64,000 nucleotides of DNA from Nitrosopumilus sp. (GTDB lineage Archaea; Thermoproteota; Nitrososphaeria; Nitrososphaerales; Nitrosopumilaceae). The position numbers were made by a program, and so were the translations under genes. Positions 15,324 to 33,900 of the stretch are shown here, one piece after another (position 1 is the stretch's first letter; each line of letters starts with the position of its first letter). The DNA lies in assembly GCA_965204345.1 (NCBI GenBank), contig OZ241981.1, positions 352,001 through 416,000 of the forward strand, written 5' to 3'. The notes under the pieces were generated by a model. It worked only from the letters and a program-made list of their open reading frames with translations, was not told where the DNA came from and ran no database searches.

Positions 15324-16273
15324 AATTTCCAAATATGCCAATAGTTTGTAAAATGTTTCTTGATTGATTCATGTGTGTTCTCAACTTTGTCATTTTGTAG
15401 CACATTGCCGTCATTATCCATTGTTGCCACCTAAAGAAACTTCTTGTGCAGGACAATGTCCACAAGCATGCCTCTTCTTTGACCTGCTCTTAATCTGTTT
15501 CTTTGCAATATTCTTCTTTGGAGATGATGATGATGCTAATTTGACTGGCGATAAATGCCATTTTTCATATGAACTAACAGATTCATTGCCTATTTCCATT
15601 TATTTTATTTATTGAAATTAATGATTTTACGCCTAAATTTTGGTACTCTGATTCTTTCCTAGTTTAGTGCACGTGAAAAGATCTTAGGATTGAACAGTGT
15701 AAAAGTTTTGGACTGATTAACACAAATGTGGATTGCCCCACTCTAATGGATTTATAGTGCAAAGAAGATAAGTTGAGAGAATAAAATAAGTTGCGAAAAC
15801 ACCAATCCCAATTCCTACGATTTTTAATTTCTTCATGATAAAAAAAGAAGTGGAACTAATTAAGTTCATGCCATGCAACTACATGTGGACCCCACCACCA
15901 CCAACTAGGCCAAATATAAGAATTAGTTTCAGGATTGGTTCTGGGACATAAGTGTCACATGTATCTGATGAGCGAATTATTGCTTGTTCTCTGAATACAT
16001 CATTATCGCATCCATAGGCACTTACATCAAAGGCATAATCAATTGATGGGTTAGCAGACCATGTCACGTATTCTTAACAGTGTCCTCTGAGGAAGAAAAA
16101 GAAATGACAACTGGCAGGGATGAGTTATTTTTCAGACAGGTGTATTGCATCACCTGTATCAATGAAATTATCCCATGCTTGCTGATAAGGCAACGTATCA
16201 CATGATACGCAAATTGTATGTTAAATAATTTACAGGTAGCTGTATTTTGGAAGGAAAAAACATTGCCGCACAT

Positions 16274-16720
16274 TTATTCTCTGCTAAAAGAATACGAGGA
16301 TTGTACAAATCCCAAATGCCTGTAGAATTCATGCGCGTCCTTTCGCTGATTTCCAGATTCCAATCTGATTCTATGGCAGTTTTTTTCTTTTGCAAGAACA
16401 ATGCAAGAATTGACTAGTTTCTTGCCGATGCCGTGATTTTGATACTTTTCATCAACAACTAGCTCGGGAATATACATCTCCAAGGTATGTTGGTTTAATC
16501 TTGTCAAAAACATCACACTTGCCATGCCAACAATTTTTACATCGTCAAGTTCTGCAACAAAAACTGCCTTGTCTGAGTCCTTGAGATACTTTGTAACCAG
16601 CTTTCGAAACATCTCAACATCAGAGTCTTTTTGAGGAGCGGGTCGTCCAAGATCATATAACAGTCCAAGAAGAACAGGAATATCCCTCTGAGATGCTTTT
16701 CTGACTAGTACATTATCCAT
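16274..16720 (-). CDS. GNAT-family N-acetyltransferase
   Basis: LVVDEKYQNHGIGKKLV (motif A), RKDAHEFYRHLGF (motif B). Confidence 0.92.
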   Translation of the reverse strand: MDNVLVRKASQRDIPVLLGLLYDLGRPAPQKDSDVEMFRKLVTKYLKDSDKAVFVAELDDVKIVGMASVMFLTRLNQHTLEMYIPELVVDEKYQNHGIGKKLVNSCIVLAKEKNCHRIRLESGNQRKDAHEFYRHLGFVQSSYSFSRE

Positions 16721-16742
16721 GATGAAACAAAAACATGGTGAC

Positions 16743-16847
16743 TTAAGAATTAGATTCTCACAAACATGGCATTTGAGATGGATGTAGAGGTTGATCTAGT
16801 AGGGTATGACTTTTAAGAATTAGATTCTCACAAACATGGCATTTGAG
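16743..16847. repeat. 35-bp exact direct repeat flanking a 35-bp unique insert
   Basis: TTAAGAATTAGATTCTCACAAACATGGCATTTGAG at 16743-16777 and 16813-16847; insert ATGGATGTAGAGGTTGATCTAGTAGGGTATGACTT. Confidence 0.92.
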
Positions 16848-17000
16848 GGCATAAAAAATACCAAATTTGGAAATTAGGCTTTATTGTACAGGCAGTAATG
16901 TCATTTCAGGTACGGACATGGCCCGTCATAAGGCAAGAAACGAACAAAAATAACAGTAAAAAAAGTTATTCCTTATATCTTGCAAGGATTTTCCAAGATT

Positions 17001-17987
17001 ATGAGAATGCATGTTCTTACAGGCTTTTTGATCTTGTGTATGGCAACAGTATCTCAGGCAGATAATTTTGCAGATGCCATTGAATATCCATCATCACCAT
17101 CACCACCACCGCTAAAGCAGGTTCAGCAGGGGGCAATTCCTACAAATGTCATCTGCGCTGAGGGCCTCAAGATGGTATTAAAAGTATCAACTGGAGATCC
17201 TGCATGCGTAAAACCGTCAAGTGTGGAGCAGCTAATCAAGCGCGGTTGGGCAGAACACGTTTTGCCAGACGTTGATTCAAGTGCAACTCAAAATTCCGAA
17301 TTAATCACCGAGGGAAATTTTCAAGTCAGTACAAAGGATGTAATCTATGACGGAAATGCAGGATTTCTAGCAAATCCAATATCTAATGAGTCTCATCCGG
17401 GTGTGATACTGATTCACGAATGGTGGGGATTAAATGACAACATAAAACAGACTGCTGAAAAGCTAGCTTCCCAGGGATATGTCGTATTAGCAGTTGATCT
17501 TTTTGAAGGCAAGGTTGCAACAGATGCCCAAGCTGCAATGGACCTTACTAGAGCATTTGTACAGGAGGATGCAATCCTAAACATGAATAGTGCGGTAGAT
17601 TACTTGCAAACAACGCACAACGTGGATTCGGTTGGTTCTATTGGATGGTGCTTTGGGGGAAAACAATCCCTTGCCCTGGCACTAAACAATGACAACATGG
17701 ATGCTACAATAATTTACTATGGAAGAGTAGTTACAGAGCCAAAAGTATTATCATCAATAAGTTGGCCGGTACTAGGAATATTTGCAGAGCTAGATCAAGG
17801 AATTCCGCCTCAAACAGTCAATGAGTTTGAGGAGGCACTAAACGAGGCAGGAGTTACAAATGATATTTACATTTATTCTGGTGTGAATCACGCGTTTGCA
17901 AATCCAACAGGTGAGCGCTATGCACCACAAGAAGCAGACGATGCATGGAGCAAAACCCTGGAATTTTTAGAGGAAAATCTGAAATGA
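17001..17987 (+). CDS. Secreted dienelactone-hydrolase-family alpha/beta hydrolase with N-terminal Cys-containing thaumarchaeal domain
   Basis: Signal peptide; PPLKQ..CAEGL..PACVKP..LIKRGW domain; IHEWWGLN, GWCFGG nucleophile motif, HAFAN; start 17001 or 17007 uncertain. Confidence 0.88.
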   Translation: MRMHVLTGFLILCMATVSQADNFADAIEYPSSPSPPPLKQVQQGAIPTNVICAEGLKMVLKVSTGDPACVKPSSVEQLIKRGWAEHVLPDVDSSATQNSELITEGNFQVSTKDVIYDGNAGFLANPISNESHPGVILIHEWWGLNDNIKQTAEKLASQGYVVLAVDLFEGKVATDAQAAMDLTRAFVQEDAILNMNSAVDYLQTTHNVDSVGSIGWCFGGKQSLALALNNDNMDATIIYYGRVVTEPKVLSSISWPVLGIFAELDQGIPPQTVNEFEEALNEAGVTNDIYIYSGVNHAFANPTGERYAPQEADDAWSKTLEFLEENLK

Positions 17988-18109
17988 CAGCATGGATTCA
18001 GTTTCTTAGAAATCTGAGCCATTTTTGAGGAGCAAACTAGAACATCCAAACGATCCGGATTGACTTTCATCAGCCCATACATCTTCTCTGTCCAGGCAAG
18101 GTAGCAAAG

Positions 18110-19287
18110 CTAGATTGTTTGTTCTTGGAGTACTAGTGAACTTTGGATGTTTCTGAGTGTTGATATAAGAATAGGTCTTGACAATGAATGCCCATATTTT
18201 GAAATAATGTTGTAAATTCCAAGTGGTGAAACTAATCGTTCTAAAATATTTTTTTAGTTATTTTATGTCCTTCTGAATTATTTTCTTTATATTTTCTTTT
18301 TAATTCCATTTCTCTAATAAAAAATTCTCCCGATGTTTCATATCGTAAATAAAAATCAAAATTTTCTCTTAAATTTCTATATACATCCATTACGTTTTCT
18401 AATGATAATTCGGGTTCTATTCCTTGTTCTATTTTCCATTCATCATATATTTTATAATTTATAGAATTCCTTTCATAGTTAGACCATTTTGTTTTATTTC
18501 CGAATTTAACTTTGGTTACATCTGTTTCAATTAAAGATACCCAAGATAGATCACTATCAAAGTAGACTTCAAAGGGCTTATCAAAAATAATATTTCTGAA
18601 ATCAAATTTTTTTTGAAAAGAGACTTCTGTAAAATATGTGGTAGATTTAAACCTCGAATCTGAAAAATCTGCACCTTCTTCAAATAGGGTATTCTTAAAA
18701 ATGGTTTTTTCATTAAAATGTACCGATATGAAACTCACAAATTTATTAAATATTGTATCCGTAAAATCAACATAAAAAAAATTTGCATCTAAAAATGATG
18801 CACTTTGTATTTTTGAATTTTCAAAAAATGTATCTTTTTTAAAACTCACGTTATAAAATGCTGCATTATTTTCAATCATCACGTTTGAAAAATTTGCTTT
18901 TTTATGAAAAATGGCATTTATAAAACTAGCATCTTCACCAAAAACGGTATTAGAAAAATCTACTTCTTTCAAAAAAATACAGTTATCAAAAATTACATTG
19001 TTAAGAAATTTAGTATTAGAAAAATCAACTATGGTTGAAATTTCTTTATTTTTAAATTCTATGTCTGGGATTTTGTACCCTATACACAAAATTGGTATCT
19101 CATGTTCTATCGATTCTTCAATTTTCTGTTTGATTAGTTCAGTAATTTCTGTTTTATGATTATGAACATATTCTTCATCGTGAAATTTACATTTGCCGGA
19201 CTCTAATGCAGTTTCATCACAACTGAATATTTCAGGTGATTCTTTAACGTAATCTTGATATTTATGCCTATAATCACATGTTGTCAT
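18110..19287 (-). pseudogene. Pentapeptide-repeat membrane-associated protein, frameshifted and truncated
   Basis: C-x-FH N-terminus and many DFSxxxF repeats; ORF stops at 18241 right after an A7 run; the alternative frame continues NILERLVSPLGIYNIISKYGHSLSRPILI...* to 18110. Confidence 0.7.
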
Positions 19288-19873
19288 TTGACTCGTTATT
19301 TTTATTAGATTGTCTATTATACGGATTGTTTAAAATTGGATATTATGCAATAGTAAAATTATAAGAGAAATTTCCACATAGCAAAAACTAGTTCTTTCGA
19401 ATCTTGCATTATTATTCTAGCACTTGTTCCAAATAATTCTGTGTATTGGCTTCGTAACAACCCCCCCCCCCTTCCTCTTAAGAGATTTAATGTTCAAATC
19501 TTGGCAATTTGGGTTTCTTTGTTATTTACAATACAGTGATAAGTACAGTTCACGTTGATTCATCCTGATTATTCTTTGATCAGCATCATGCCTTCTTGAG
19601 AAACAGTTTCAAGTAATTTTGACAATACATACCATAAATCACAGATTTAGGAAATCTCTGGTTACACTTTGAAATTTTCTGATGATTAAAACTATGTAAT
19701 TTTTAAGAAAACCATCTCTTGCAATCTAGATGATATTCTGCTTGAAAAATATCGGTAAATGAGACTTGCTAAGTTCTAGTTCCTTTAACTATGGAGCTTC
19801 GGGATTATATTATCACTTTACACCATAACCCATTCACTTCATGTTAAGAGTGGAGATCTAGAATATTAATGAG

Positions 19874-20131
19874 TCACAATTCAGGTATTTTTGCATTTGA
19901 CTTGATTTTATAATATCCATTCCCGGCATTCTCAATAAATGATGAACGAATAAGAATTGAACGAATTGTTGCATCAGGAGTTTTAGAAGTAATTTTCTTA
20001 ACCTTACGGATTTTAGTTAAAAGTTGAATAGCAGTCATAGGCTTCATTTCTCTTTTTAGAATTCGAAGAATATGATAATGATAGGTGTTTTTTCCAACTA
20101 CTTGATCAGAAATTATAGATTTTTTTTGCAT
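19874..20131 (-). CDS. Small HARE-type winged-HTH protein
   Basis: ILRILKREMKPMTAIQLL...ITSKTPDATIRSIL...F...GNGYY. Confidence 0.7.
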   Translation of the reverse strand: MQKKSIISDQVVGKNTYHYHILRILKREMKPMTAIQLLTKIRKVKKITSKTPDATIRSILIRSSFIENAGNGYYKIKSNAKIPEL

Positions 20132-20176
20132 AATAATACTCGTGTTTAATATTATTAAATAGTTTTTTTAGATGAA

Positions 20177-20971
20177 TTATTGGGTTATCATTGGCACAGA
20201 CATTTTTAATCTGTTTCGTGCAATCTCAACAAATTCTTTCTCTTTTTCTATTGCGATAAAATTTCTTTTGTGTTTTTTTGCGACAAAAGGTATTGTTCCA
20301 CTACCTGTAAATGGATCTATTATCACATCGCCCTCATTAGTCAATCCTAAAATTAATTTTTCAACTACGGCTATAGGTTTCTGGTTTGGGTGTTTTCCAA
20401 ATTGTTTTTCAGATAATGGCGTCATTGGTATATCCCACATATTACGCATCTGTTTACCTCCATTCATCTTTTTGAGAACATCATAGTTAAATGTCCAATT
20501 TTTGGCATTTTTTATGTCATTGTTTACCGCCCATATCAGATATTCAGTACTCTCACAAAACATCCTTCTAGTGATGTTTGGAAATGCATTTCGTTTATAC
20601 CATGTAACTGAACCTATAATCTTTCTTTTGTTTTTCTTTAATATATAACCTGTATCAAAAATATTGTGAAACGTTCCAAATACCACAATATTTCCATTTG
20701 GCTTAACTATTCTAAAGATCTCCGATAACCACTCTTGAAGAAATAGGTCATATTCTGAATCTGTAAAGGAATCCCATTTTTCATCCATTTTGTTAAATTT
20801 TTTCTCATCAGTCCAAAAACCATTTGACTGTAACCATCCTATTGCTTTTTTTCCATCATAGCCTGAAATATTGTAAGGTGGATCAGTAATACAATGATCT
20901 ACACTATCAGTCGATACTTTGCGCAGCTTTTCAATGGCATCGCCCAACCAAATTTTATTACGATATGCCAT
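20177..20971 (-). CDS. Beta-class (N4-C/N6-A) DNA methyltransferase, M1
   Basis: Motif IV TDPPY at N-terminus, HPNQKP, motif I DPFTGSGT near C-terminus. Confidence 0.94.
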   Translation of the reverse strand: MAYRNKIWLGDAIEKLRKVSTDSVDHCITDPPYNISGYDGKKAIGWLQSNGFWTDEKKFNKMDEKWDSFTDSEYDLFLQEWLSEIFRIVKPNGNIVVFGTFHNIFDTGYILKKNKRKIIGSVTWYKRNAFPNITRRMFCESTEYLIWAVNNDIKNAKNWTFNYDVLKKMNGGKQMRNMWDIPMTPLSEKQFGKHPNQKPIAVVEKLILGLTNEGDVIIDPFTGSGTIPFVAKKHKRNFIAIEKEKEFVEIARNRLKMSVPMITQ

Positions 20972-21083
20972 TATACCAAAATTTGTTCATCTCCCATATT
21001 TATTGAATTAATTCGATAACTACACACATAGTAAATTTAATTTCACTTTAATTATGTTTAAGAAATTATTGAAATTATGAGTA

Positions 21084-22085
21084 TTGTCTGATAATTCTGA
21101 ATTAAATGATCTAATTTTACAACTACAACAAATACAAAACGGTCTCGAAGAACAATTTGGAATTTCAGATATATACTCCAACAGTAAATTCTATGAGATT
21201 ATGATATCTAATGAGTTGGAACATACACCAATTGCAGGACATTCAGGAACACGTGATGGTAAAACATCAAATGGTGAATTTGAGTACAAGCATTTCAAAG
21301 AATCAAGTTCAAATCATTCTTGGACATTTAATGACTATTCAGATGAAACAATCGAAAAATTAAAAGGAGCTCATTCAGTAATTTTTGCACATATTGATGA
21401 TATGAATAAAAATCATCCTATTTTTGATTGGTATCTTCAAGTTGATGGAAATACATGTTCAAAATATCTAAAACGTAGAACAGAAACACTTCTCAAAAAA
21501 CAACCAAAAGGAAAACCTAATGCAAGACGAATGATTAATTTTTCTGCAAATCAATTAGAAAATGATTTACAGATATCTAAAATATACATAAATCCCATAA
21601 AAGAAAAAGGCAGATTCACAGAAGGACTAAACAAAATAATTGAACTAACTAACAAAATAGAAAGAATCACATGTATCGATCAAATACTTACAAGCAATAA
21701 ATTTTGGGAAATGCTTGTCGCAAAAGAAATAGGGCATGATGTATTATCTGAACAGTCTGGACACGATGCAATAGATAAAGATGGAAAATTTTATGAGTAC
21801 AAGGTAGCTGTAGATTCAAAGTGGAATTTTCAAGATATATCTGATTCTGTATTAACAAAATACATAACTGATGAAAAAATAATCTTGGCCATTGTTAACA
21901 AACATGAAATTAGTGTAAAAAAAATATACATTGCGGATTCTGAAATAACTGTAGCACGTTTGAAAGAAAAACTTACAGAAAGGGCACAAAAATATAAAAA
22001 ACAAAACAAAGAAATTAGAAGAAATAGTATATCTTTTTCTAAAGGAGATCTAAAAAAAATTAAGGCTCAAAAAATATTTCCTTAG
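21084..22085 (+). CDS. Putative type II restriction endonuclease with two tandem PD-(D/E)xK (PvuII-like) domains
   Basis: Internal duplication: SNSKFYEIMISNELEH...RDGKTSNGEFEYK and TSNKFWEMLVAKEIGH...HDAIDKDGKFYEYK; lies between two MTases. Confidence 0.75.
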   Translation: MSDNSELNDLILQLQQIQNGLEEQFGISDIYSNSKFYEIMISNELEHTPIAGHSGTRDGKTSNGEFEYKHFKESSSNHSWTFNDYSDETIEKLKGAHSVIFAHIDDMNKNHPIFDWYLQVDGNTCSKYLKRRTETLLKKQPKGKPNARRMINFSANQLENDLQISKIYINPIKEKGRFTEGLNKIIELTNKIERITCIDQILTSNKFWEMLVAKEIGHDVLSEQSGHDAIDKDGKFYEYKVAVDSKWNFQDISDSVLTKYITDEKIILAIVNKHEISVKKIYIADSEITVARLKEKLTERAQKYKKQNKEIRRNSISFSKGDLKKIKAQKIFP

Positions 22086-22822
22086 AATTTTTTGTTGATT
22101 TTTTCTTGTAACACTATAACATCTTGTTTCATAAACGTCTCAAGTCTCTTTTTTGCCATCTTGCAATATTCTGCATTATTATCAAATCCTATGAATTGAC
22201 GATTCAATTTTTTACATGCAAGAGCTGTAGTGCCACTGCCCATGAAAGGATCAAGTACAATGTCATTTTTTCTAGTAGTTAATTCAACTAGCTTTACAAT
22301 AAGATCCAGTGGTTTTTGTGTTGGGTGTATCCTTGTTTTTCCTTTTGGTGCCTGATATTTGAATATGTTATGAGTGCAATACCCGCCAAAGTATGCACTG
22401 TCTCTTTTACCAATTACAGCAGATTCCCAAGCATTAAGAAGTTTTGATTTTCCATTTAGAGGTACCGGATCAGGTTTTTGCCACACAATAGAATCAATGG
22501 CTTTGAAACGTAATTTTTCCATGTAATCCCAATACTTTCCAATGTCTTTTTTAGCACAAAATATGATTGCCCATCCCGATGTCTTTTTTAATCCTTCCTT
22601 GCACCATGAGGTAAAATTTTGTCCATTATCTGCATCCCAATTACCAAAATCAAAATCTAGTTTTGCCGTGCTGCCAAGTTTTTGACCCTTACAATTCAAA
22701 GTTTTGCTTATTCCATAAGGGGGATCTGCAATTAAGAGTTGTATACTGCCATCTGGAATTTTTTTCAATCCTTTCATACAGTCAATATTATGAATTTTAT
22801 TAAGTAATGAATCTGAAATCAT
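22082..22822 (-). CDS. Beta-class (N4-C/N6-A) DNA methyltransferase, M2
   Basis: ADPPY, HPTQKP, LDPFMGSGTT. Confidence 0.94.
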   Translation of the reverse strand: MISDSLLNKIHNIDCMKGLKKIPDGSIQLLIADPPYGISKTLNCKGQKLGSTAKLDFDFGNWDADNGQNFTSWCKEGLKKTSGWAIIFCAKKDIGKYWDYMEKLRFKAIDSIVWQKPDPVPLNGKSKLLNAWESAVIGKRDSAYFGGYCTHNIFKYQAPKGKTRIHPTQKPLDLIVKLVELTTRKNDIVLDPFMGSGTTALACKKLNRQFIGFDNNAEYCKMAKKRLETFMKQDVIVLQEKINKKF

Positions 22823-23007
22823 TTGTTATCTCCCTCACTTACAACGATATATTTCCTTTTGATTATGAACTTCAGTTTATCTGGATCTCCTAAAAAATCT
22901 ACAATAGGTTTTGGAACTCTACAAATCAAACTCTTTGAACCGTCAGCATTAGTGCTTTTACTCAGACTTACATTGAACTCTTTGGTGTTTTTTGCCCATC
23001 TTGTCAT
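22819..23007 (-). CDS. Small AbrB/SpoVT-like DNA-binding protein, coupled to M2
   Basis: MTRWAKNTKEFNVSL...SLICRVPKPIVDFLGDPDKLKFII; stop overlaps the M2 start (ATGA); ATG at 23007 preferred over 23112. Confidence 0.6.
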   Translation of the reverse strand: MTRWAKNTKEFNVSLSKSTNADGSKSLICRVPKPIVDFLGDPDKLKFIIKRKYIVVSEGDNK

Positions 23008-23289
23008 AAAAAAACATTCTTGTGAAACTATATAAAATAACCGATCTGTTAATAACAGTACAATTATTATACTGCATGGATATAAGAAAATCAAAAAGTA
23101 AAGAGATCGCATAAAAACAAGATCAAATCACAAGAATTAATTAATGCTATTAATTGCTTGATGCAAAATAATCTTATTCAAATATTTTCAAAATGTCTGA
23201 AAATACTTTTTCATTTTAGAATTTTTTTAGGTAGGATACAATACTGTTTCCTTGTGTATTTCTTAAGAAGTGATGCTCATGTTTAGATG

Positions 23290-23553
23290 ACTGAAAAACT
23301 AATTAAACTATGCATTAGGTCATGCTTTTGGATTGAATATTGCACTACAGATCATTCCTAAATTATTAGAGTTATGGAAACACGGTATGGAAATCCCCTC
23401 AATGATGATAGAAGATTCCTTCAATTCACGTGTTAACCAATTACTGAATTAAATTAGAAAAGATGGTTTCAAGTTATGAATCTGACGGTTTAACATTATT
23501 CTCCCTGAAGAAAATTTACTTCCATCTTGGATTCAAAAAATATTCAAAGGGTA
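23290..23553 (+). pseudogene. Possible decayed metallopeptidase remnant
   Basis: Fragments ALGHAFGL (cf. HExGHxxGL zincin) and LLPSWIQK (cf. thaumarchaeal IPxWIK domain) broken by stops and frameshifts. Confidence 0.3.
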
Positions 23554-23701
23554 GGGTAACGGAACAATTCAAGATCTAGAATTATTTAATGTTCTTCAAC
23601 ATCTTATTCAAAATAAAATCATTACAGCATAGATCTAAATCATCAAAAGTGTTTAAATAGAAAAACCATTACATTAATTTTAAATTCAGCATAACAATGG
23701 C

Positions 23702-24088
23702 ATGATGAATATCAAAAACCAGTCGCCGATTGTGGTTTATGACAACGCGTGTCATCTTTGTATTAAATTTGCAAATTCGGTGAGCTTTCTTGCCAGGGGA
23801 AGAATAGCACTGATAGGACACTATACAGAAATGGGAGAAAAGCTAAGAAAGGAATACCTGGGCGCAAATGCTACGGAAATGTTTTGGTTCATTGATGGAA
23901 AAAATGCTCATGGAGGACGCTCTGCATTGCTGCCACTGTTGCAAGAGATAATCTTTTCAAGAAAAACCGCACGGCCGCCACAAGCCAATGCGGAAGAAAG
24001 ATGCAAGATAGGCTGCAAAGCTCCCAAGGCTGTGTTTGCAAGATCATTTAGCCTGATAACCCACAGTAGAAAAATCAGGATTAGCTAG
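23702..24088 (+). CDS. DCC1-like thiol-disulfide oxidoreductase (DUF393)
   Basis: VVYDNACHLC (DxxCxxC) motif. Confidence 0.8.
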   Translation: MMNIKNQSPIVVYDNACHLCIKFANSVSFLARGRIALIGHYTEMGEKLRKEYLGANATEMFWFIDGKNAHGGRSALLPLLQEIIFSRKTARPPQANAEERCKIGCKAPKAVFARSFSLITHSRKIRIS

Positions 24089-24318
24089 GCTCATCCAAAC
24101 GGCAACATCCAAGACTGGATGGTTGTTGCTGTTGTATGAATTCTTTTGAAAGTTCAGCATAAAATCAACAGATTGCCATTCCTCCTTATCATCATCATCT
24201 TCTTCTTCTCCTCCTCTTCAGCCAACTACTCTGCAGATGGCAAATGACACAAAGAGAGACATCTGCTTGAAACATTAGAAAAGTTAGAAATAAAGGCACT
24301 GCAAAAAATAATGAAAGG

Positions 24319-24723
24319 TCATGAGCCCATCATGCCGACCATTTTAGGCAGCTCTCGATATGCCTTGCTTACAAAGATATCATTGTCTGCACTGACCATA
24401 ACAAACTGCATCGAGTTCTCAGGAGGGGGAGACACAATAATTTTTTGTCTTGTTTGCATGGTTCCCAAATCCATGGTATCACCATCGCCAAAATTAATGC
24501 GGACATTAGTCAGGGGTTCAGAGCCGGTATTCTGAATTGTTACCCTGCCCATTACAAACAGACTCTGTCTGTCCAAAATAGGATCCACAAAAATATCATG
24601 CTCCTGAGTGCTAACAGACAATTTCAAGACATCCATGCCAAAGATTACCGCCATGATGACAATGGCGCCAACACCTGCACCAACAATCATAGTGTACTGA
24701 TTCAACAACTCTAAACCACACAT
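24319..24723 (-). CDS. Membrane-anchored hypothetical protein (Ig/CARDB-like)
   Basis: N-terminal TM; VTIQNTGSEPLTNVRINFG beta-sandwich pattern; start uncertain. Confidence 0.7.
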   Translation of the reverse strand: MCGLELLNQYTMIVGAGVGAIVIMAVIFGMDVLKLSVSTQEHDIFVDPILDRQSLFVMGRVTIQNTGSEPLTNVRINFGDGDTMDLGTMQTRQKIIVSPPPENSMQFVMVSADNDIFVSKAYRELPKMVGMMGS

Positions 24724-24740
24724 CTAATAATTAAGATTGG

Positions 24741-25022
24741 CTACCTTACTTTGACACCGTTCCAAAATGCCACCATGCCTTTGATTTTCATGGCAGCATC
24801 GTTGGGCTCTGCATAGTACCATGCACAGTCCCTGTTGGTTTTGCCATTTACATCCACAGAATAATAATTTGCCATTCCCTTCCAGCCACAGAAAGTTGTC
24901 AGTTCCGTTTTTGTAAAATATTCTTGCTTTATAGAATCAAACGGAAAGTAGTGATTTCCTTCAACTTTGATAGTAGCATCACTTTCGGCAATTACCACGT
25001 CATTCCATATTGCCTGCATCAA
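24741..25022 (-). CDS. DUF427 domain protein
   Basis: IAESD...VEGNHYFP...CGWKGMANYY...AWYY..P...IKGMVAFW. Confidence 0.92.
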   Translation of the reverse strand: MMQAIWNDVVIAESDATIKVEGNHYFPFDSIKQEYFTKTELTTFCGWKGMANYYSVDVNGKTNRDCAWYYAEPNDAAMKIKGMVAFWNGVKVR

Positions 25023-25065
25023 TACAAAACAGATTCAGGTAATATTTAATTAAATCTCAAGCAGC

Positions 25066-26508
25066 TTATTGGGTTGCCCTAACTTGCTCACGTTTTGTAA
25101 AATCAGGCTTTATTCCCAATGAGTCATAGTTTCCAGAAGAGCAGGCAAAGCACATGGAATCCTTTGAGATTCCTACGGCGTTGGCAAGGTTCTCAGCATC
25201 ATTATACCCCAAGAAATCAACGCCGATGCTTTGTCTAACCATCTCAGTAATCTCATCTCCGGTCATGGCTTTTCCATCAGTAAAGGTGGCAAGTTCCTCC
25301 TGAGAAGGAAAGTCAATTCCGGCATAGCAGGGATAGTTGATTTGAGGATAGGTAATCAGCATGCTGATTCTCCTTGCACCTGCACGGCGAAGAGCTTTGA
25401 TGATGGCCTTTGAGCTGGTGCCCCGGACCAGGCTGTCATCGATTACCACCACATGTTTGTCTCTAATGATTTCACTGATTGGAATAATCCAGCGATTAAT
25501 GTCAACCCTATCGCTTTGATGGGGTTCAATGAAACTACGCAGTGGTCCCTTCTTGCTATAGCGGTCTTTTAGCAGCCCCTCATCAAAGGATATTCCCAAT
25601 TCCTGGGCATATCCTAATGCCGCAGGTCTTGCAGAATCAGGCACCGGTATTACCAGATCAGCATCAGTGAGAGGGAATTTTTTTGCCATAAGCCTGCCAA
25701 TATTTTTTCGGGAGATGTAGATGTTGTGTCCCTCCATGTTACTTGAGGGGTGTGCAAAGTAGGTAAACTCAAAGGAGCAGTGTGCGCGAGACGAGTCAGT
25801 CGAAAATTTTTCAGTCTCTAGGCCAGACTTGCTTAGTTTGATTAATTCGCCTGGGGTTATATCTCGCTGTAATGCTGCACCGACTGCAGTGACTGCAGCG
25901 GACTCAGAGGTTACAATGTAGGTATCATCAGATTCCTTGTGTCCTAAAACCATAGGGCGAAATCCCTTGGGATCCCGTGCAGCATATACGGAATTGTCAT
26001 CGGAGATAAAAGTAAAACAGTACGAGCCGACCATCTCGTTCTTTAAGACAGAAAGCGCCTTTCCCATCTGGCCATTTTCTGAGATTAGGGATACCAGGCG
26101 CTTAGCTGCAACTAGCGTATCATTTGCATTCTGGGGAGTAAAAGAGCAGCCGCCAACCATGTTGGATAGTTCTTGGGCATTGGCAATGGTTCCATTATGG
26201 GCAATGCAGAGATCCTTTACTTTGAGTGGCTGGGCATTATCTAGGGTGCTGGTTCCCATAGTAGAGTATCTCACATGGCCAATCACACATGGAGAGGCAT
26301 ACTCTTGCGCAAGTCTTTTAAAATCAGACGAGGAGTGAGAGACCAATCCCACTCTCTTAAAAGGTGCCTTGTTTGGAACTGCAAATCCCCAGGCCTCTTG
26401 GCCCCTGTGCTGCAAAGCCCGTAAGGCATCAAAGACCATTGGAATGACATTTTTTCCAGTCAGGCTGTAAATGCCCACAACGCCGCAATTTTCTTTGACT
26501 TTAGGCAA
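25066..26508 (-). CDS. purF: Amidophosphoribosyltransferase
   Basis: ENCGVVG, LQHRGQE, GHVRYST, AHNG, PVPDS, VIDDSLVRGTS; likely TTG start at 26508 after GGAGG. Confidence 0.97.
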   Translation of the reverse strand: MPKVKENCGVVGIYSLTGKNVIPMVFDALRALQHRGQEAWGFAVPNKAPFKRVGLVSHSSSDFKRLAQEYASPCVIGHVRYSTMGTSTLDNAQPLKVKDLCIAHNGTIANAQELSNMVGGCSFTPQNANDTLVAAKRLVSLISENGQMGKALSVLKNEMVGSYCFTFISDDNSVYAARDPKGFRPMVLGHKESDDTYIVTSESAAVTAVGAALQRDITPGELIKLSKSGLETEKFSTDSSRAHCSFEFTYFAHPSSNMEGHNIYISRKNIGRLMAKKFPLTDADLVIPVPDSARPAALGYAQELGISFDEGLLKDRYSKKGPLRSFIEPHQSDRVDINRWIIPISEIIRDKHVVVIDDSLVRGTSSKAIIKALRRAGARRISMLITYPQINYPCYAGIDFPSQEELATFTDGKAMTGDEITEMVRQSIGVDFLGYNDAENLANAVGISKDSMCFACSSGNYDSLGIKPDFTKREQVRATQ

Positions 26509-26655
26509 GGCAGCCTGCCTCCAAGGCATCAGATAAATTATTAGAAAAAGTACAAGACCCTGTTAAATCACCAAGTGACGACTCCATTCCCTGATCCATA
26601 ATCTAACTTTGAATAATAAAAATGATGAACACTTTTTGCGATCAAAAACGCTTTA

Positions 26656-28839
26656 TCAATCAGGTTTCTTGCCCTCAAGAACCAAATCAGAAAGAGCAGT
26701 AAGCCAAGATTGGCGGGTTTTATCCACATCTAACTCTACGACAGATTCGGATTTGGATGTAAACTGAATTTTTTTGCCAACAAAGCGTCCAATCTGTTTG
26801 AATGAAACATTGTTCTCCTTTAGAATTTCCCCTATCCTCAGATAGTGCCGTTTATCAAAGGCAAGTAAGTAGCGAGAGTGGCTTTCAGAGAACAAAATTC
26901 GGTCAGTATCAAGTTTATCATCATCTACAGGAATTTCATCTAAGAGCACGCTGCAGCCAACTTGATTGGTCATGCAGATTTCAGATATTGCTACTGCCAG
27001 GCCGCCTTTGGAGCAGTCATGTACTGATTTGAGAAGGCTGTTTTGAATTAAATTTAGGACAGAATCCATGTTTTTCTTCGAGTCCTCAAAGCTGACTGCA
27101 GGACATTTTCCGCCAATGAACCTGTGAACATACTCAAAATATTCAGAACCGCCCATTTCGTTTTTGGTATCACCGACAACTATCAAGCAGTCATCCTGGG
27201 TGACCTTCTGAGGAACAGACGGCCTCTGATCAATTAGTCCTATGACGCCAATGACAGGAGTCGGCTTGATTGGGCCTGCAGGAGTTTCATTGTAGAGGCT
27301 GACCTTTCCGCCAACACACGGAATTTCAAAATATTTGGCAAAATCAGTCAGTCCCCTCAGGGATTCTAGAAAAGTCCAAAAGATTTCAGGATCTTTTGGG
27401 TTTCCAAACTGCAGATGATCAAGCATTCCAATTGGCCGAGCTCCGGTACAGACGACATTTCTGCATGCTTCCTCAAAGCAGCCAATCGCACCCTCGCGCG
27501 GATTAAGGTAGCAGTGTTTTGGATTTCCGTCAATCTTTGCAGAAAGGTATCTTCCGTTATCTAATCGCAAAACAGAGGCATCAGATCCCGGTTTTACCAC
27601 TGTACGGATTCCAACTTCATGATCATACTGGCCATAGACCCAAATCTTACTTGCAATATTTGGCGAGGTCAGTAATCTTAGTAGCACGTCAGAATAGTCC
27701 CTGATGTGCTCAAATGACTTTTCAGTTTCAATTCTTTGTAAATAAGATGGCTTTTTTGAGGGCAAGTCAAGCAGGGTCGCATTAGCTACCACGTCAGTAG
27801 GCAGATTGGCAAGCGTTTTCCCGCCCTCCCTAACATGCATTTGCCTATCAGACCTTACAGAGCCAATCACAGAGCAGCCGATACGGAATTTTTCACATAT
27901 TTCCCTTAATTTTTGTAGTTTTTCCCGACTAGTAACAATCAGCATTCTTTCTTGCGATTCAGATACCATGATTTCATCAGGATGCATGTCAGGCTCGCGG
28001 GTGTGAACCATCTTAACATCCATCTCAATCCCAATTTCCAGCGCATCAGCAGTTTCAGAAACAGCGCAGGACAGGCCGCCGCCACCAAGGTCTTTGAGTG
28101 CATGAATCAGCCCGGCAGTCCTAGCCTCCAAAACAGCTTCAATGATTAGTTTTTCAATGAATGGATCAGGGATTTGAACGGCGGAGCGATCCTCAGACTC
28201 TAAGGAATCAGATGCAAACTGAGAGCCGCCGATTCCATCCCTGCCAGTAGGGCCTCCCATCAGTACGACAACATCGCCTTTCTTGGCATGATTTTTAATC
28301 AAGTTTTCTTTCTTGCCAAACCCCAGTGCGGCCACGTCAACTAGCGCATAGTTTTCATAGCATTCGTCAAATTCGGCCTCCCCGCCAATGGTTGGAATAC
28401 CAAGGCAGTTGCCGTAATCAGCAATGCCTGCAACTGCATTTTTAAAAAGCCATCTTGCTTGCAAATCTTTTTTGATATTTCCGAATCGCAGTCCATCAAA
28501 AATTGCAATAGGCCTAGTTCCAGCAGACAGAATGTCTCGTATTACACCACCAACGCCTGTTGCGGCCCCGCCATAAGGCTCCACGGCAGAAGGATGATTG
28601 TGGCTTTCAATGTGGGCCGTGACAACATATCCGCCTCCAACATCCAAAACTCCAGAGTCGTATCCTTTCTCACTAATTACCAAGGGGCCGTCCATGGGCA
28701 GCATTTTGAGGTGTCTTTTTGATGACTTGTAAGAGCAGTGCTCTGACCATTCAGCAGCCACAATTTGCAATTCAGTAGGCGTAGGATCTCTGCCAATCTT
28801 GGACTTTAGCTCGTCTAGTTCTTGCTCTTCAAGACTCAT
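26656..28839 (-). CDS. purL: Phosphoribosylformylglycinamidine synthase subunit PurL
   Basis: WSEHCSYKSS, ESHNHPS, TGRDGIGG, SESQERM, GGKVSLYNET, HDCSKGG. Confidence 0.97.
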   Translation of the reverse strand: MSLEEQELDELKSKIGRDPTPTELQIVAAEWSEHCSYKSSKRHLKMLPMDGPLVISEKGYDSGVLDVGGGYVVTAHIESHNHPSAVEPYGGAATGVGGVIRDILSAGTRPIAIFDGLRFGNIKKDLQARWLFKNAVAGIADYGNCLGIPTIGGEAEFDECYENYALVDVAALGFGKKENLIKNHAKKGDVVVLMGGPTGRDGIGGSQFASDSLESEDRSAVQIPDPFIEKLIIEAVLEARTAGLIHALKDLGGGGLSCAVSETADALEIGIEMDVKMVHTREPDMHPDEIMVSESQERMLIVTSREKLQKLREICEKFRIGCSVIGSVRSDRQMHVREGGKTLANLPTDVVANATLLDLPSKKPSYLQRIETEKSFEHIRDYSDVLLRLLTSPNIASKIWVYGQYDHEVGIRTVVKPGSDASVLRLDNGRYLSAKIDGNPKHCYLNPREGAIGCFEEACRNVVCTGARPIGMLDHLQFGNPKDPEIFWTFLESLRGLTDFAKYFEIPCVGGKVSLYNETPAGPIKPTPVIGVIGLIDQRPSVPQKVTQDDCLIVVGDTKNEMGGSEYFEYVHRFIGGKCPAVSFEDSKKNMDSVLNLIQNSLLKSVHDCSKGGLAVAISEICMTNQVGCSVLLDEIPVDDDKLDTDRILFSESHSRYLLAFDKRHYLRIGEILKENNVSFKQIGRFVGKKIQFTSKSESVVELDVDKTRQSWLTALSDLVLEGKKPD

Positions 28840-29540
28840 TTTTCAATACCCATTTTGCTTAGCAGCGATTCAAAGATCAAAGAAGAGGGCTTGCTGTCTA
28901 TAGGGTTAATGTCAGACTCGACTGCCCTCTCAGGATGAGGCATCATTCCAACAACATTCCCATCCTCATTACATACACCTGCTATTTTGTCTGATGAGCC
29001 ATTTACAATTTCATCATACCTGAAAACGATTTGATTCCTCTTTTTTAGCTCATTGGCAGTTTTCTCATCAACATAGTATCGCCCTTCGCCATTAGCTATG
29101 GGGATAGGAATTTTTTCACGCAATTGAAACTGATTGGTAAAAAAAGTGGTGTTGTTTTCTACTACAAGACTAGTCCATTTGCACATAAAGCTAAGAGACT
29201 CATTTTTTAGCAATGCCCCGGGCAGTATGCCAGACTCCACAAGGATTTGAAATCCATTACACACGCCCAAAACCGGAATTCCTTTCTCTGAGATTTTTCG
29301 TACGTCTGAAACAACAGGACTGTGAGCAGCAATGGCGCCGGCCCTTAGCCTGTCTCCATAAGTGAACCCCCCAGGAAGAATTACGGCATCAATGTTCTCA
29401 GGCAGTCCTTTTTCGTGCCAGCAATATCTGGTATCCAAACCAAATACATCCCTTAAGACGTGATACATGTCACGATCACAATTGCTGCCAGGAAAGACTA
29501 CAACTCCAACTTTCACAACTAGATTAGCATTCAGGGACAT
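28836..29540 (-). CDS. purQ: Phosphoribosylformylglycinamidine synthase subunit PurQ
   Basis: FPGSNCDRD, PGGFTYGDRLRAG, GVCNGFQ, MMPHPER; exact start uncertain. Confidence 0.96.
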   Translation of the reverse strand: MSLNANLVVKVGVVVFPGSNCDRDMYHVLRDVFGLDTRYCWHEKGLPENIDAVILPGGFTYGDRLRAGAIAAHSPVVSDVRKISEKGIPVLGVCNGFQILVESGILPGALLKNESLSFMCKWTSLVVENNTTFFTNQFQLREKIPIPIANGEGRYYVDEKTANELKKRNQIVFRYDEIVNGSSDKIAGVCNEDGNVVGMMPHPERAVESDINPIDSKPSSLIFESLLSKMGIEK

Positions 29541-29990
29541 ATTTAATTTGAATCCAGACACAAAAGATTCCCAGGCAAGGAAACCATGTGATCGCCACTA
29601 CAAGCCGGTGACACATGAGAAAATGCAACTATGATAGATCACGATAAAACCACTTTGTGCATCAGTAATGCTAAAAGAAAAAAAGAGAGATCAGTCTTCT
29701 AGTAGTAATGATAAAAGCCGTCAGGAATTGTTTCAAAAAGGGATATTGCAAGTAAGATTGCTGCAAAAGATCTCAAATCATCGCAAATGCAGTTAGAAGA
29801 AATCGTGCCATGGAGATTCAAACAGATATTGTGATATACAAAATTGGCTTTGCAGCTCAAAAACAAAAAAATGCCAAATCACAGCATCAGGTGACTAGTC
29901 GTACTTGAAGCATGAAACCTGTGATCCAAACCAGATTCAGGATCTAAAACAGTAGCATCAGACGGTTAGTCATACCTGAAGCAAGTTGCA

Positions 29991-30461
29991 ATGTCAAGTA
30001 ATGGGGAGGTTTTCCCAGAGATTATCCTAGCAAAACGGACAGGCAGGTATAGACTGCCAATGGACTTTGTAATAATATCAGCAGTTTTAACGTCAGTTAT
30101 TTTTGCATCATATCCAAGCATGTTAGGAATATGAGGAGGATAAGTTTTGGGCAAACAGCTTGCAGTATGCACTTACAAGCATTGTCTTTTTTGGGTATTG
30201 GGTTGTTTTGGAATACAAACGGGCAAAACAATCAGAAAGAAAATGTTGAACCTAAAGGCTGTGGATATCTCAGGGAAGAGTCCAACACTAAGGGCGGTTT
30301 TAATCAGCACGTTTGGAAAGTCATTTTTGCTCCCCATAGATGTCATTTTGGACCGGGTTCTTACTAGTGAAAAGAAGTAAATGGCATTTAGCAAGCTAGG
30401 GGACACAGTTGTCATAAAAATCATAAAGCAGAAATCGGATTTAAAATGCACAAAAGACTGA
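29991..30461 (+). pseudogene. RDD-family membrane protein pseudogene
   Basis: Fragments MSSNGEVFPEIILAKRTGR..DFVIIS / YALTSIVFFGYWVVLEYK / GKTIRKKMLNLKAVDISGKSP...LLPIDVIL...KK* / FSKLGDTVVIK in shifted frames with stops. Confidence 0.75.
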
Positions 30462-30763
30462 TCCTGTCAGGTTTTCTCAGCGGGTTGTTGTGAAGATTTT
30501 TCCAACAGAGCTACTAGTGATAGGGATATGCAGGATGGCATCTGAGAACAGCAAACAAGGGTGTTGGCAGTTGGGTTTGCCAGATGAGCTTCAAAAAGAC
30601 ATAGAATTTGTAGGATAGTTTGAAAAACCACAACACTCAAAAAAAAAATAAAGAGGTCATAAAGACGGTGTTACAATAAAAATTGGAACACGGCCTAATG
30701 TGCATAAGAGATAGTGTATCACTTGAAAAACAGATTCCCTTTGAGAATGTTCCTGTTATGACT

Positions 30764-30868
30764 GTCATTTGGGATTTGTGTCGTTGGTGCGTTCTCAGAG
30801 GGAACTGTGATTGTTTCAAGAAAAGGAATTGAAGTCATTTGGGATTTGTGTCGTTGGTGCGTTCTCAG
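30764..30868. repeat. 35-bp exact direct repeat flanking a 35-bp unique insert
   Basis: GTCATTTGGGATTTGTGTCGTTGGTGCGTTCTCAG at 30764-30798 and 30834-30868; insert AGGGAACTGTGATTGTTTCAAGAAAAGGAATTGAA. Confidence 0.92.
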
Positions 30869-30967
30869 GCCGGTTCATGCCGGCATCTGTCTATCAGATG
30901 ATCAGTGTTACACAGGCATTACCAAGTCTATTTGGTGAGAATATCTAGGACTAGTTTGTCCCAGTAA

Positions 30968-33900
30968 TTATGCAAATCCAAACAGGGAGCTAAAAAAGTC
31001 TTGGATTGCAGCAAAGAAGCCCTTTTGATCCTCGGAGCTGCTCTGCGAATCAGCAGGCACACATTCTCCGTTTACCAGCTGTGTTCCGGGGCCGCATGTT
31101 GACTCTTGATCATTGTTCTTATCTGTGCCGGTTTGAGGTGGTTCTGAATCCATCATTGTAGACGTCCCTGCTTCTGCTGTTGGTTCTGTGTCTGTCTTTT
31201 CATTCAAACCTGGTACCTGTGGTTCTGGGTCCATCTCTGTTTCCATAGCTGGTTCTGGGTCCATCTGGGTTTCCATAGCTGGTTCTGGGTCCATCTCTGT
31301 TTCCATAGCTGGTTCTGGGTCCATCTGGGTTTCCATAGCTGGTTCTGGGTCGGTCTTTATCAGCCCTTCTTCCTTCTTTTCATCCTCCTCATTCAGACCT
31401 GGTACCTGTGGTTCTGGATCCATCAGATCTTGTCCTGCTCCAGTCTGAGTATTGTTTGTAGATATGCTAGATCCAGATGAAGAGCCCGTTCCTGTGTTGA
31501 TCTCACTGCAAAGCTGGAGGCCACATATGCGCGAGTCAGGAGACTGGCCGCTGTTGCCTCCTCCTCCGCCGCCACCACCGCCGCCGCCACCGCCACCGCG
31601 GTTACCGCCAGAAGATGCGGATGGTGTAACAGCAGGCTGATCATCAGATACAGAGAATGAACCAAATGAGCTAAAGTGTGTGGTCCAGATGATCATATCA
31701 GAGCCGTCACGAACAAAACATGATTCCAACGCAGTGCCAGCTTCAAGATTAGTATTGGCAGTAGCCTGATTGACAGGAACAAACGGACATACAACCAGTG
31801 ATCGTGATTCTACAGCGCCATTAGTATTTTCTCCTGAGAAGAAGGCACCATCATGGCTTGCTTGTCCAGGCAATAGTAACCTGACTGCCTGATCAAATGT
31901 TAGTCTAGTGTTGCCATCACCTACAGAGAATGCCAGTCCTATCTCACCATTTGAGGTTGGAAGGTTAGTAACATCAGTAGAAAGTGATGGAACGGCAATA
32001 CGGCCAGTCCAATCACCAAATGAACCGGTTACAACGACATTAGCTGGATAGGTGACAGTTACTGTTTGAGAATCAGAGACAGCAGAAGTAACAACAGTCG
32101 CAGAATTAGAGATTGTCACACTCTTTACTCCGTTTGCACTATCATCAGCAAATGTTGGTGCGCCATTAAAGTTAATCAGTTGGCCATCAGTGGCAATAAT
32201 TGTGTCAGGTAATGTGTCATATACTACATTAAGGGTGATCAAATTTGAGGATGGCTCATATGTAGGTTGGCCATCAGGGCCTCCAAGCGGGATATCGGCC
32301 TCAATGTCATCTCCTGTAGTGTTGATGGTGACAGTAACTGGAGCAGATGTGGTGTTGGGGTTGCCTGCAAGGTCTGTTGCCACGTCTGCTGCTATTGATA
32401 CAATTACGGTTCCGTCTGATGAGCCGCGTGCCACATTAAAGGTGTAGACACTGCCAGTACCACCAATGTTGGATGCTGTGGGACTACCGCCGTTGGCAGT
32501 GCCTTCTACTGTAATGTCAGATAGGACAAAGTTCTGGACATCCTCGCTAAAGGTTGCAGTAAAGGTTACTGGATCATCACCAGTGGTGGTGCCATCAGCA
32601 GACGTGATGGTTACGGATGGCCTTACCATGTCCACAATGATAATATGTATAGCATCTGTGTTGCCACCCACTACTACATTGTCAGGTATTCTTACTGTCA
32701 GCTGACCTTCTAGAGTGATGCCGTGTGCGACTGTAAAGTCGTATTGGGTACCACTGGTTTCAGTAAAGGCAGTTATCAGGCTATTAGCTGCTGGAGTTCC
32801 GTCAATTTCCACACCGATGTCAGATTGTACAAATCCTGTGACATCCTCACTAAAGGTTGCAGTAAATGAGACGGCCTCAGAGTTTGTAGGATCAGCAGCA
32901 TTTGTGCTCAGGGATACGTATGGGACATCGGTGTTTATGGTAACGGTAACTGGAGCAGATGCGGTGTTGGGGTTGCCTGCAAGGTCTGCTGCTACGTCTG
33001 CTGCAATGGATACAATTACTGTTCCGTCAGAGGATATGCCTGCAACGTTAAAGGTGTATGTGCTGGCATCAACTGCTACAAAGTCAGTTGCTGTGAGGGT
33101 GCCGTTGTTGGCAGTGCCTGCTACTGTAATGTCAGATAGGACAAACTCTTCAACATCCTCTCTAAATTCTACTATAAATGGTACCGTATCAAGTCCGGTG
33201 CTGCTGCCTGCAGGTGAACTGACAGAGACTGTTGGGGCAGTGGTGTCTATTGTGACGGTAACTAAATTAGATGCGGTGTTGGGGTTGCCTGCAAGGTCTG
33301 CTGCCACGTCTGCTGCAATGGATGCAGTTACGGTTCCGTCTGTAGAGCCACGAGCAACATCAAAGGTGTATGTGCGGGCACCAACTGTTGCAAAGTTGGC
33401 TGCTACTGGAGCACCGCCGTTTGCGGTGCCTGCTACTGTAATGTCAGCCAGAACAAAGTTCTGAACAACCTCGCTAAAGGTTGCAGTAAAGGTTATGGTA
33501 TCAGAGTTGGTGAGATCATTGGCAGTTGTAGTTACAGAGACTGTTGGGACAATGGTGTCTAGGGTAACGGTAACTGGGGCAGATGCGGTGTTGGAGTTGC
33601 CTGCAAGATCTGCTGCCACGTCTGCTGCTATGGATGCAGTTACGGTTCCGTCTGAGGAGCCGCGAGCAACATCAAAGGTGTATGTGCGGGCATCAACTGT
33701 TGCAAAGTTGGCTGCTACTGGATTGCCGCCGTTGGCAGTGCCAGTTACTGTAATGTCACCTAGTTCAAAGTTCTGGACATCCTCGTTAAAGGTTGCAGTA
33801 AAGGTTACGGGGTCATCACCAGTAAGGGTGCCATCGGCAGGCGTGATGGTTACGGTTGGAACAAGAGTGTCTATTGTGACGGTAACTGGGGCAGATGCGG

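Follow-up and report, generated by a model that had tools for sequence, protein, structure and literature searches.

Scattered repeat-insert-repeat units in a Nitrosopumilus genome as probable off-target CRISPR spacer integrations

A 64-kb stretch of the genome of a Nitrosopumilus sp. (hereafter the window, meaning all 64,000 nucleotides analysed, positions 352001 to 416000 of contig C1) carries two short units in which a 35-nucleotide (nt) sequence is duplicated around a 35-nt insert (Table 1). The genome, here called G000, comprises 2.12 Mb in 9 contigs and encodes an archaeal AmoA. Unit 1 lies in the intergenic spacer between two genes, and unit 2 just past the 3' end of a 6162-amino-acid (aa) open reading frame (ORF). 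The period is 70 in both, and the two repeats and the two inserts differ. A first description of the window, made from its letters alone and referred to below as the sequence-only reading, had reported this 35/35/35 geometry; it is exact, and both units are sharp-edged, with mismatching letters beside each repeat copy. The recurrence of an exact 35-mer within 70 base pairs (bp) is no chance event. The same reading had noticed that the reverse complement of the first repeat agrees with the second at 16 of 35 positions. That count is correct, but as a signal it is marginal at best: 16 or more matches, in the better of the two orientations, are reached by 2.1% of 20,000 random pairs of 35-mers from the window, and this reverse-complement pairing is not the relative orientation given by the flank motif described below.

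Table 1. Coordinates of the two window units and of the features around them, followed by the units that lie in long ORFs elsewhere in G000. Positions count from the first letter of the window unless preceded by C1; a slash marks the junction between flank and repeat.
Feature	Position	Strand	Remarks
Unit 1, first repeat copy (R1)	16743-16777		35 nt, exact match to 16813-16847
Unit 1, insert	16778-16812		35 nt, spacer-like, unique within the genome; absent from X1, X2 and X3 contigs here
Unit 1, second repeat copy (R1)	16813-16847		35 nt, exact
Unit 1, leader-like flank GGC	16848-16850		on the minus strand gcc/CTCAAATG
Unit 2, first repeat copy (R2)	30764-30798		35 nt, exact match to 30834-30868
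Unit 2, insert	30799-30833		35 nt, source is an HD-domain phosphohydrolase gene that G000 lacks
Unit 2, second repeat copy (R2)	30834-30868		35 nt, exact
Unit 2, leader-like flank GCC	30869-30871		on the minus strand ggc/CTGAGAAC
824-aa ORF	12849-15323	plus	Eco57I/N6-methylase part fused to BsuBI/PstI restriction endonuclease part
GNAT acetyltransferase gene	16274-16720	minus	one side of the intergenic spacer of unit 1
Dienelactone-hydrolase gene	16980-17987	plus	other side of the intergenic spacer of unit 1
5.5-kb island	18127-23675		pentapeptide-repeat protein, two N6/N4 DNA methylases, 333-aa ORF
6162-aa ORF	30968-49456	minus	unit 2 just past its 3' end
Unit in subtilase gene	C1:162808		period 72; G018 subtilase ortholog without the 23 aa
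Unit in D12 DNA methyltransferase gene			period 69
Unit in PLD-nuclease/SNF2-helicase gene			period 75

Both sites also exist in public metagenomes in an empty form. Four runs of one study (X10 to X13) contain all 421 sampled words of window positions 15000-19000 and are probably the source runs; three runs from three other studies (X1 and X3, labelled sponge metagenome, and X2, a 2010 metagenome) contain 0.65-0.84 of them. Logan contigs of X10, X1, X2 and X3 were aligned on window positions 16000-31100. At unit 1, contigs of X1 and X3 pass from position 16742 straight to 16813, so that 70 bp are missing and 35 letters can be assigned to either side; X2 has a single-copy empty joint there too, but with a 1-nt indel. 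At unit 2, contigs of all three runs join 30763 to 30834 in the same manner, with 70 bp missing and 35 letters assignable to both sides. The empty allele thus consists of one repeat copy and no insert at both sites, and the contigs that carry it have a divergence from the window well below 1%; in X1, for instance, 28 letters differ over 6.5 kb. The run X10 shows no empty joint at either site. At unit 1 its contigs end at 16772, after 30 nt of the first copy, and resume at 16818, 5 nt into the second copy; at unit 2, a contig likewise resumes at 30839, 5 nt into the second copy. Two occurrences of a 35-nt repeat have this effect on a graph with k=31, and in the likely source run the contig ends thus fall where a true repeat-insert-repeat structure predicts. 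The filled form is found in the source run and the empty form in three other studies. In a separate observation, contigs of X10, X1, X2 and X3 depart from the window at 30646 and rejoin it at 30949 with other letters between, and the region around unit 2 is therefore replaced in some co-occurring strains. Empty sites were also sought at the DNA level in other species: positions 16000-17700 match 40 related genomes only in their coding parts, at 65-81% identity, so that intergenic empty sites are unreadable there.

The two window units belong to a much larger set. Isolated direct-repeat pairs that are near-exact (30 or more matches in 32) were sought on contig C1 at periods of 40-130. As the sequence-only reading had led one to expect, pairs with a period near 70 bp are in strong excess: 30 of the 51 isolated pairs have a period of 69-76, and the remaining 83 period values share 21 pairs. 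By period, these 30 pairs are distributed as 72 (14 pairs), 70 (5), 71 (4), 75 (3), 69 (2), 74 (1) and 76 (1). Twenty-two independent sharp units were counted, with a median period of 71.5 (range 69-75), a median exact repeat of 37.5 nt and a median insert of 35 nt (range 30-38). All 22 repeats are mutually different, as are all 22 inserts, and the two repeat copies are identical in 21 of the 22 units, the unit at C1:486267 having one mismatch. The count leaves out identical copies that lie within larger duplications (C1:1410373, 1413971, 1424895 and 1848731), pairs whose exact repeat is shorter than 30 nt or that contain mismatches or indels (C1:110352, 193709, 284502, 301804, 754448, 905180, 1400070, 1974847, 167190 and 1704437), and two further C1 pairs (718060 and 1474537). 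Some of the imperfect pairs may be older units or coding repeats, and at least two more pairs with 1-2 mismatches resemble older units. Evidence for an empty allele covers 4 of the 22 units, namely the two window units at the level of contigs and those in cas1 and in the subtilase gene at the level of the protein.

The units are not evenly spread but cluster in pairs: 9 of 21 gaps between neighbours are shorter than 20 kb against 4.1 expected (P = 0.005). In the closest case, the units at C1:486267 and C1:486377 are 3 bp apart and have one GGC in common. Several units were copied along with their surroundings. The unit at C1:1406775 (repeat 38, period 72) recurs at 1410373 and 1413971 with a spacing of exactly 3,598 bp, which suggests that a 3.6-kb segment was triplicated in tandem after integration. 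Inverted identical copies are found at C1:1419699/1424895 and at 1765720/1848731, the latter pair adjoining integrase genes of rve-type insertion sequences (IS). Each scattered unit consists of two repeat copies of arbitrary host sequence and one insert, and none has grown beyond one insert. Runs of three or more repeat copies occur at 15 places on C1 and at one place each on C5 and C6, none of them at a scattered unit; those identified on C1 include the true CRISPR array described below and one 57-bp coding tandem. The latter, a tandem repeat at C1:1456868-1457611 that was considered as a CRISPR array, is a coding repeat.

The window contains no cas gene, as the sequence-only reading had stated; a cas1-cas2-cas4 cluster lies about 1.5 Mb away in the same genome. 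The single Cas1-family match in G000 is at C1:1887727-1888668 on the minus strand (PF01867, E 1.5e-68) and has two internal TAA stops. It is followed by cas2 and cas4, and then by a six-repeat CRISPR array at about C1:1886280-1886667, with periods of 72, 68, 70, 72 and 72 and a repeat of about 34-36 nt. On the minus strand the array repeat ends with ATTGAAAC, which places the leader next to cas4. The repeat-plus-spacer length of this array equals the length of the scattered units, so that a cas1 gene and an array of matching geometry are both present in the genome. No Pfam match was obtained in G000 for Cas7 (DevR), RAMP, Cas6_C or Cas5d. A Cas3_HD match at C1:161086-161355 does not represent Cas3 but a generic protein with an OB-fold and an HD domain, and the neighbouring gene, which bears one of the units and was considered as a helicase, is the subtilase gene of Table 1. 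A C-terminal fragment of Cas6b at C1:1884292-1884815 is 63% identical to residues 98-220 of Cas6b from G053, a genome of the same genus, and a single degenerate CRISPR repeat, with 3 mismatches in a 25-nt core, comes after it at about 1.5 kb from the array. About 3.5 kb from the cas locus there is a tyrosine-integrase gene (L002 6557-8248).

The G053 genome shows what a complete system of this kind looks like. Its cas genes are in the order cas7-cas5-cas3-cas6b-cas1-cas2-cas4, with a 562-aa ORF preceding cas7, and its array has 67 repeats of 36 nt and spacers of 34-36 nt. The intervals in that array are 70 (n=10), 71 (n=33), 72 (n=20) or 73-75 (n=3), so that 63 of 66 fall at 70-72. Between the two genomes, Cas1 is 58% identical, Cas2 64% and Cas4 49%; of the Cas proteins of G053, G000 retains only these three and the C-terminal part of Cas6b. 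Judged from its gene content, the G000 locus is a decayed, adaptation-only remnant of a type I-B-like system. Within the family, cas1 was detected in 50 of the 151 genomes sampled, a tally that takes in the unpublished genomes G117 and G132, and in 2 of 10 genomes of its own genus, including G000.

The cas locus itself holds two of the units. A unit at C1:1888134 (repeat 38, period 72) divides cas1 into two ORFs; compared with Cas1 of G053, this 72-bp unit is an in-frame insertion of 24 aa with 2 stops, opposite an alignment gap of 22 columns. At the leader-proximal end of the array, the unit at C1:1886549 has a 40-nt duplicate (13 nt of spacer and 27 nt of repeat) around a 32-nt insert, with a period of 72, and represents an off-register integration. 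Besides cas1, three units lie in long ORFs (more than 250 aa), all in frame and stop-free (Table 1). The periods of all four long-ORF units are divisible by 3, but this also holds for 12 of the 22 units overall, and the reading-frame argument is weak when taken alone. In one further unit the duplication takes in the final 23 nt of tRNA-Ser(cga), and the gene remains intact.

Whereas the likeness between the two window repeats is weak, the units have a real signal in common, a short motif in the flank that resembles the leader-repeat junction. The 22 sites were oriented by expectation-maximisation on their junction sequences, with random sites as controls. The log-likelihood was 85.7, against 49.5 +/- 5.8 for the controls, none of 300 of which reached it. 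Two features on one side of the repeat stand out against 5000 control draws: C at flank position 3 in 19 of 22 units (mean of 7.7 and maximum of 16 among the controls) and GC at flank positions 2-3 in 10 of 22 (mean of 1.8 and maximum of 7). The true array's leader-repeat junction, in transcribed orientation, reads gct/CTGAATAG, with the same motif as the units. The repeat begins with CT, like the true repeat, in 6 of the 22. A pyrimidine occupies position 3 of the distal side in 19 of the 22, as counted by eye and without a control.

For 7 of the 22 inserts a source was found, in the same genome, in a relative or in other metagenomes. Six have a counterpart elsewhere in G000, which is exact for 2 of them and for the other 4 differs by 1-2 mismatches across 32-36 nt; three sources of such host-matching inserts are annotated, namely an NFACT gene, an UPF0182 gene and an ORF without Pfam match. 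Since the repeat copies are identical in all units except that at C1:486267, which is one of the four with a mismatched insert, later mutation of the inserts is unlikely, and the mismatched inserts more likely derive from closely related but non-identical DNA. The insert of window unit 2 is among the seven. It matches at 32 of 35 positions within a 451-aa HD-domain ORF (phosphohydrolase) of G262, a genome of the same genus, and G000 holds only paralogs of that protein at 36-37% identity. In contigs of X1 the insert is bordered by different sequence at both 30799 and 30834, and on the 30834 side that sequence continues in the frame of the HD gene; contigs of X2 have another flank on the 30799 side. 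Insert 2 was thus copied from DNA present in those communities and not in G000. For unit 1 no source was found: its insert has no match at 3 or fewer mismatches in 120 same-genus genomes, and neither window insert has an exact match in metagenome_contigs.

The period scan was repeated on the first 800 kb of each of four genomes. In G000, 11 of 19 pairs have a period of 69-76, comprising 9 of the 22 sharp units and 2 imperfect pairs. In G053, with its intact I-B system, 3 of 9 pairs fall in this range and all three are genuine units (L038 3912, L039 1656 and L055 1765, with periods of 72, 73 and 71); one of the duplicated targets ends with GGATTGAAAC, like the CRISPR repeat. The phenomenon therefore recurs in a second species having an I-B system. 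In G018, which belongs to the same genus and has neither a cas1 match nor an I-B repeat, 7 of 16 pairs are in the range, of which 4 are coding tandem repeats, 1 (L082 14674) adjoins an AT-rich tandem array and does not qualify as a clean unit, and 2 are unit-like. In G052, whose genus had cas1 in none of 5 genomes sampled, 0 of 4 pairs are in the range.

These units are very probably products of off-target (ectopic) spacer integration by the I-B Cas1-Cas2(-Cas4) machinery, or "neo-CRISPR" units. They show what is expected of off-target Cas1-Cas2 products: a repeat-length duplication, a spacer-length and copied insert, an empty allele, an integrase encoded in the same genome and sites that resemble the leader-repeat junction. 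They do not show what is expected of a functional CRISPR array, as each has two arbitrary repeat copies, no effector genes were found and cas6 is reduced to a fragment, so that no CRISPR RNA function is expected. Cas1-Cas2 with Cas4, from the decayed type I-B locus of G000, would have captured DNA fragments of about 35 bp. Two strand transfers on opposite strands, about 36-38 bp apart, would then have taken place at sites bearing a short copy of the leader-repeat junction (G-S-N directly before C-T...), and repair of the gaps would have duplicated the 36-38 bp between the nicks to give repeat-insert-repeat. The same process would have generated the 20 or so other units, including the off-register one at the leader end of the array and the one that breaks cas1. 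With the interference genes lost, inserts derived from the host or from sister strains would be non-lethal, and the insertion in cas1 would have ended the process. In this account the structure, the direction of the insertions, the genome-wide excess, the matching geometry, the foreign or ectopic source of 7 inserts and the site motif are shown, and the enzyme and the sequence of events are deduced.

Several observations weigh against this explanation. The cas1 gene is broken in this assembly, and the role of Cas1 is deduced. The exact repeat length, 31-42 nt, is spread more widely than a strict ruler predicts; the proposal of an integrase, possibly the host Cas1, is supported, but its ruler is not a strict 35 nt, the inserts and the period varying as well. 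The filled and empty alleles were read from assembled contigs rather than raw reads, and minor alleles are possible. The two unit-like structures of G018 (L096 18789 and L100 17857) have a repeat of 32-33 nt and a period of 71, one of them mismatched; a lost or mobile module is a possible origin for both. None of the 6 inserts tested, the window inserts included, has an exact match in viral_contigs, although these viral and metagenome scans demand exact or near-exact identity and viral sources are not excluded by them. No consistent protospacer-adjacent motif (PAM) is seen in the flanks of the 7 known sources, inspected by eye in the orientation set by the motif, so that the shared PAM that had been hoped for could not be derived. 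Finally, the exact host-matching inserts at C1:1886549 and 1947301 share 4+1 and 4+5 nt with their junction flanks, which accounts for exact repeats as long as 40 and 42 nt around inserts as short as 32 and 30 nt. Such sharing looks like microhomology-mediated joining, and canonical integration needs none.

That flank sharing is an argument for a Cas-independent origin by a repair or replication error such as template switching, or microhomology-mediated break-induced replication, in which the polymerase is diverted to a remote template for about 35 nt of synthesis and then comes back about 36 nt upstream. The unit-like structures of G018, a genome with no cas1 match, point in the same direction. 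Template switching is nevertheless unlikely, as it explains neither the constant period of 69-75, which equals that of the local CRISPR unit, nor the flank motif like the leader junction; moreover, 5 of the 7 inserts of known source share just 0-1 nt with their flanks, and the cas-free control G052 has no units in 800 kb. Slightly less likely still is the action in trans of another integrase, be it a casposase or a virus- or plasmid-borne Cas1-Cas2, in place of the chromosomal cas1. The broken state of that gene and the ambiguous units of G018 would fit such an agent, and the tyrosine-integrase gene near the cas locus means that this locus itself may be mobile. On the other side, the geometry and the flank motif of the units match the chromosomal array, and only one Cas1-family match exists in G000. 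This match sits in the cas1-cas2-cas4-array locus, which speaks against the casposase-like enzyme that had been offered as an alternative, and the units have no terminal inverted repeats or fixed cargo, all inserts being different.

A reversed polarity, in which repeat-insert-repeat is the ancestral state and other populations have lost the insert and one repeat by recombination, is very improbable. Direct repeats of 35 bp do allow precise deletion, and contig data alone amount to presence and absence. Yet the orthologous proteins of other species (Cas1 of G053 and the subtilase of G018) lack the inserted segments, the inserts copy sequences located in ordinary genes elsewhere, both window units are absent from three separate studies, and the repeat copies are identical in all 21 exact-repeat units. 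An assembly or library artefact, suggested by perfect repeats of a length near that of a short read or k-mer, is just as improbable, given that the likely source run, when assembled independently with k=31, breaks up where a true 35-nt repeat predicts and has no empty joint, that X10 contains all sampled words of the stretch, that units occur in the genome of another species (G053), that the three long-ORF units besides cas1 are in frame and stop-free, and that the site motif is non-random.

Off-target spacer integrations are already known as a kind of event. Off-target genomic integration giving rise to neo-CRISPR loci is described in E. coli overproducing Cas1-Cas2 (PMC7054753, bioRxiv 10.1101/148544, PMC11788318, citing Nivala, Shipman & Church 2018), and natural evidence in two other species is called "circumstantial" (bioRxiv 10.1101/148544). 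As in the E. coli events described in these texts, a spacer-length insert and a repeat-length duplication of ordinary chromosome are found away from the array, at sites that resemble the leader-repeat junction. In contrast, the units described here are natural and fixed in a lineage, they belong to an archaeon with an I-B remnant, with at least 22 events per 2 Mb, their repeat is about 36-38 nt and their insert about 35 nt, and one event lies within cas1. In vitro, Cas1-Cas2 of P. furiosus integrates into plasmids at non-CRISPR sites that are repeat-like, and it prefers a given leader base at -3 (PMC6698737). The archaeal enzyme, the repeat-like spacing and the features at the repeat borders and at leader position -3 are alike in both cases (PMC6698737). 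The P. furiosus sites, as that article gives them, have C at -3, GTT at repeat positions 1-3 and a 30-nt repeat (PMC6698737), whereas those of G000 are chromosomal, with G at -3 on the top strand (C on the outward-reading strand), a CT start in 6 of 22 and a repeat of about 36 nt.

Canonical growth of an I-B array, as in G053, has the same 36-nt repeat, 34-36-nt spacer, period of 70-72 and cas1, cas2 and cas4 genes; the scattered repeats differ in being arbitrary host sequence and not the CRISPR repeat, with a single insert each. Casposons, Cas1-solo transposons known from this archaeal phylum, have terminal inverted repeats, a fixed cargo and target duplications of about 14-15 bp. They too combine a Cas1-family integrase with a target-site duplication, but the inserts described here are of 30-38 bp and all different and the duplications of 31-42 bp, and the units are not casposons. 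Literature searches, judged at the level of listings and passages, gave no account of a natural genome with many such events, nor of one in ammonia-oxidising archaea. This case stands out for the scale of the phenomenon, for its occurrence in nature, for the matched empty alleles and for the insertion in cas1.

Other features of the window concern its surroundings (Table 1). In contigs of X1 and X2 and in a minor form of X10, 207 other letters take the place of the 5.5-kb island; in X1, the depth of the island form is 15.5, whereas the flanks have about 200. The island is variable and restriction-modification-like. The 824-aa ORF combines methylase and restriction endonuclease parts. In the 6162-aa ORF next to unit 2, a conserved 47-nt stretch occurs 14 times, with a spacing of about 300 bp within pairs, and Pro/Glu-rich 30-bp tandem repeats lie near the 3' end; the product is probably a giant surface protein.

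The units provide a natural catalogue of at least 22 integration sites from which the intrinsic site preference of the integrase can be read, with matched filled and empty alleles present in public data. They also make visible a cost of CRISPR adaptation, through the genes that have received insertions (those of a subtilase, a DNA methylase and a helicase-nuclease, and cas1), and offer a possible view of the birth of new arrays and of the decay of an adaptation module. Read jointly, and tentatively, the findings may mean that an adaptation module without interference genes acted as a natural, low-fidelity, genome-wide insertional mutagen. It would have produced at least 22 insertions in one sponge-associated ammonia-oxidiser lineage since its split from populations about 99% identical, would have recorded DNA of sister strains, and would have inactivated itself through its own cas1, leaving units that may serve as raw material for new arrays. 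Inserts that match genes of sister strains hint at DNA exchange among these archaea; if the joint reading is true, the recorded sister-strain DNA would be evidence for such exchange between strains.

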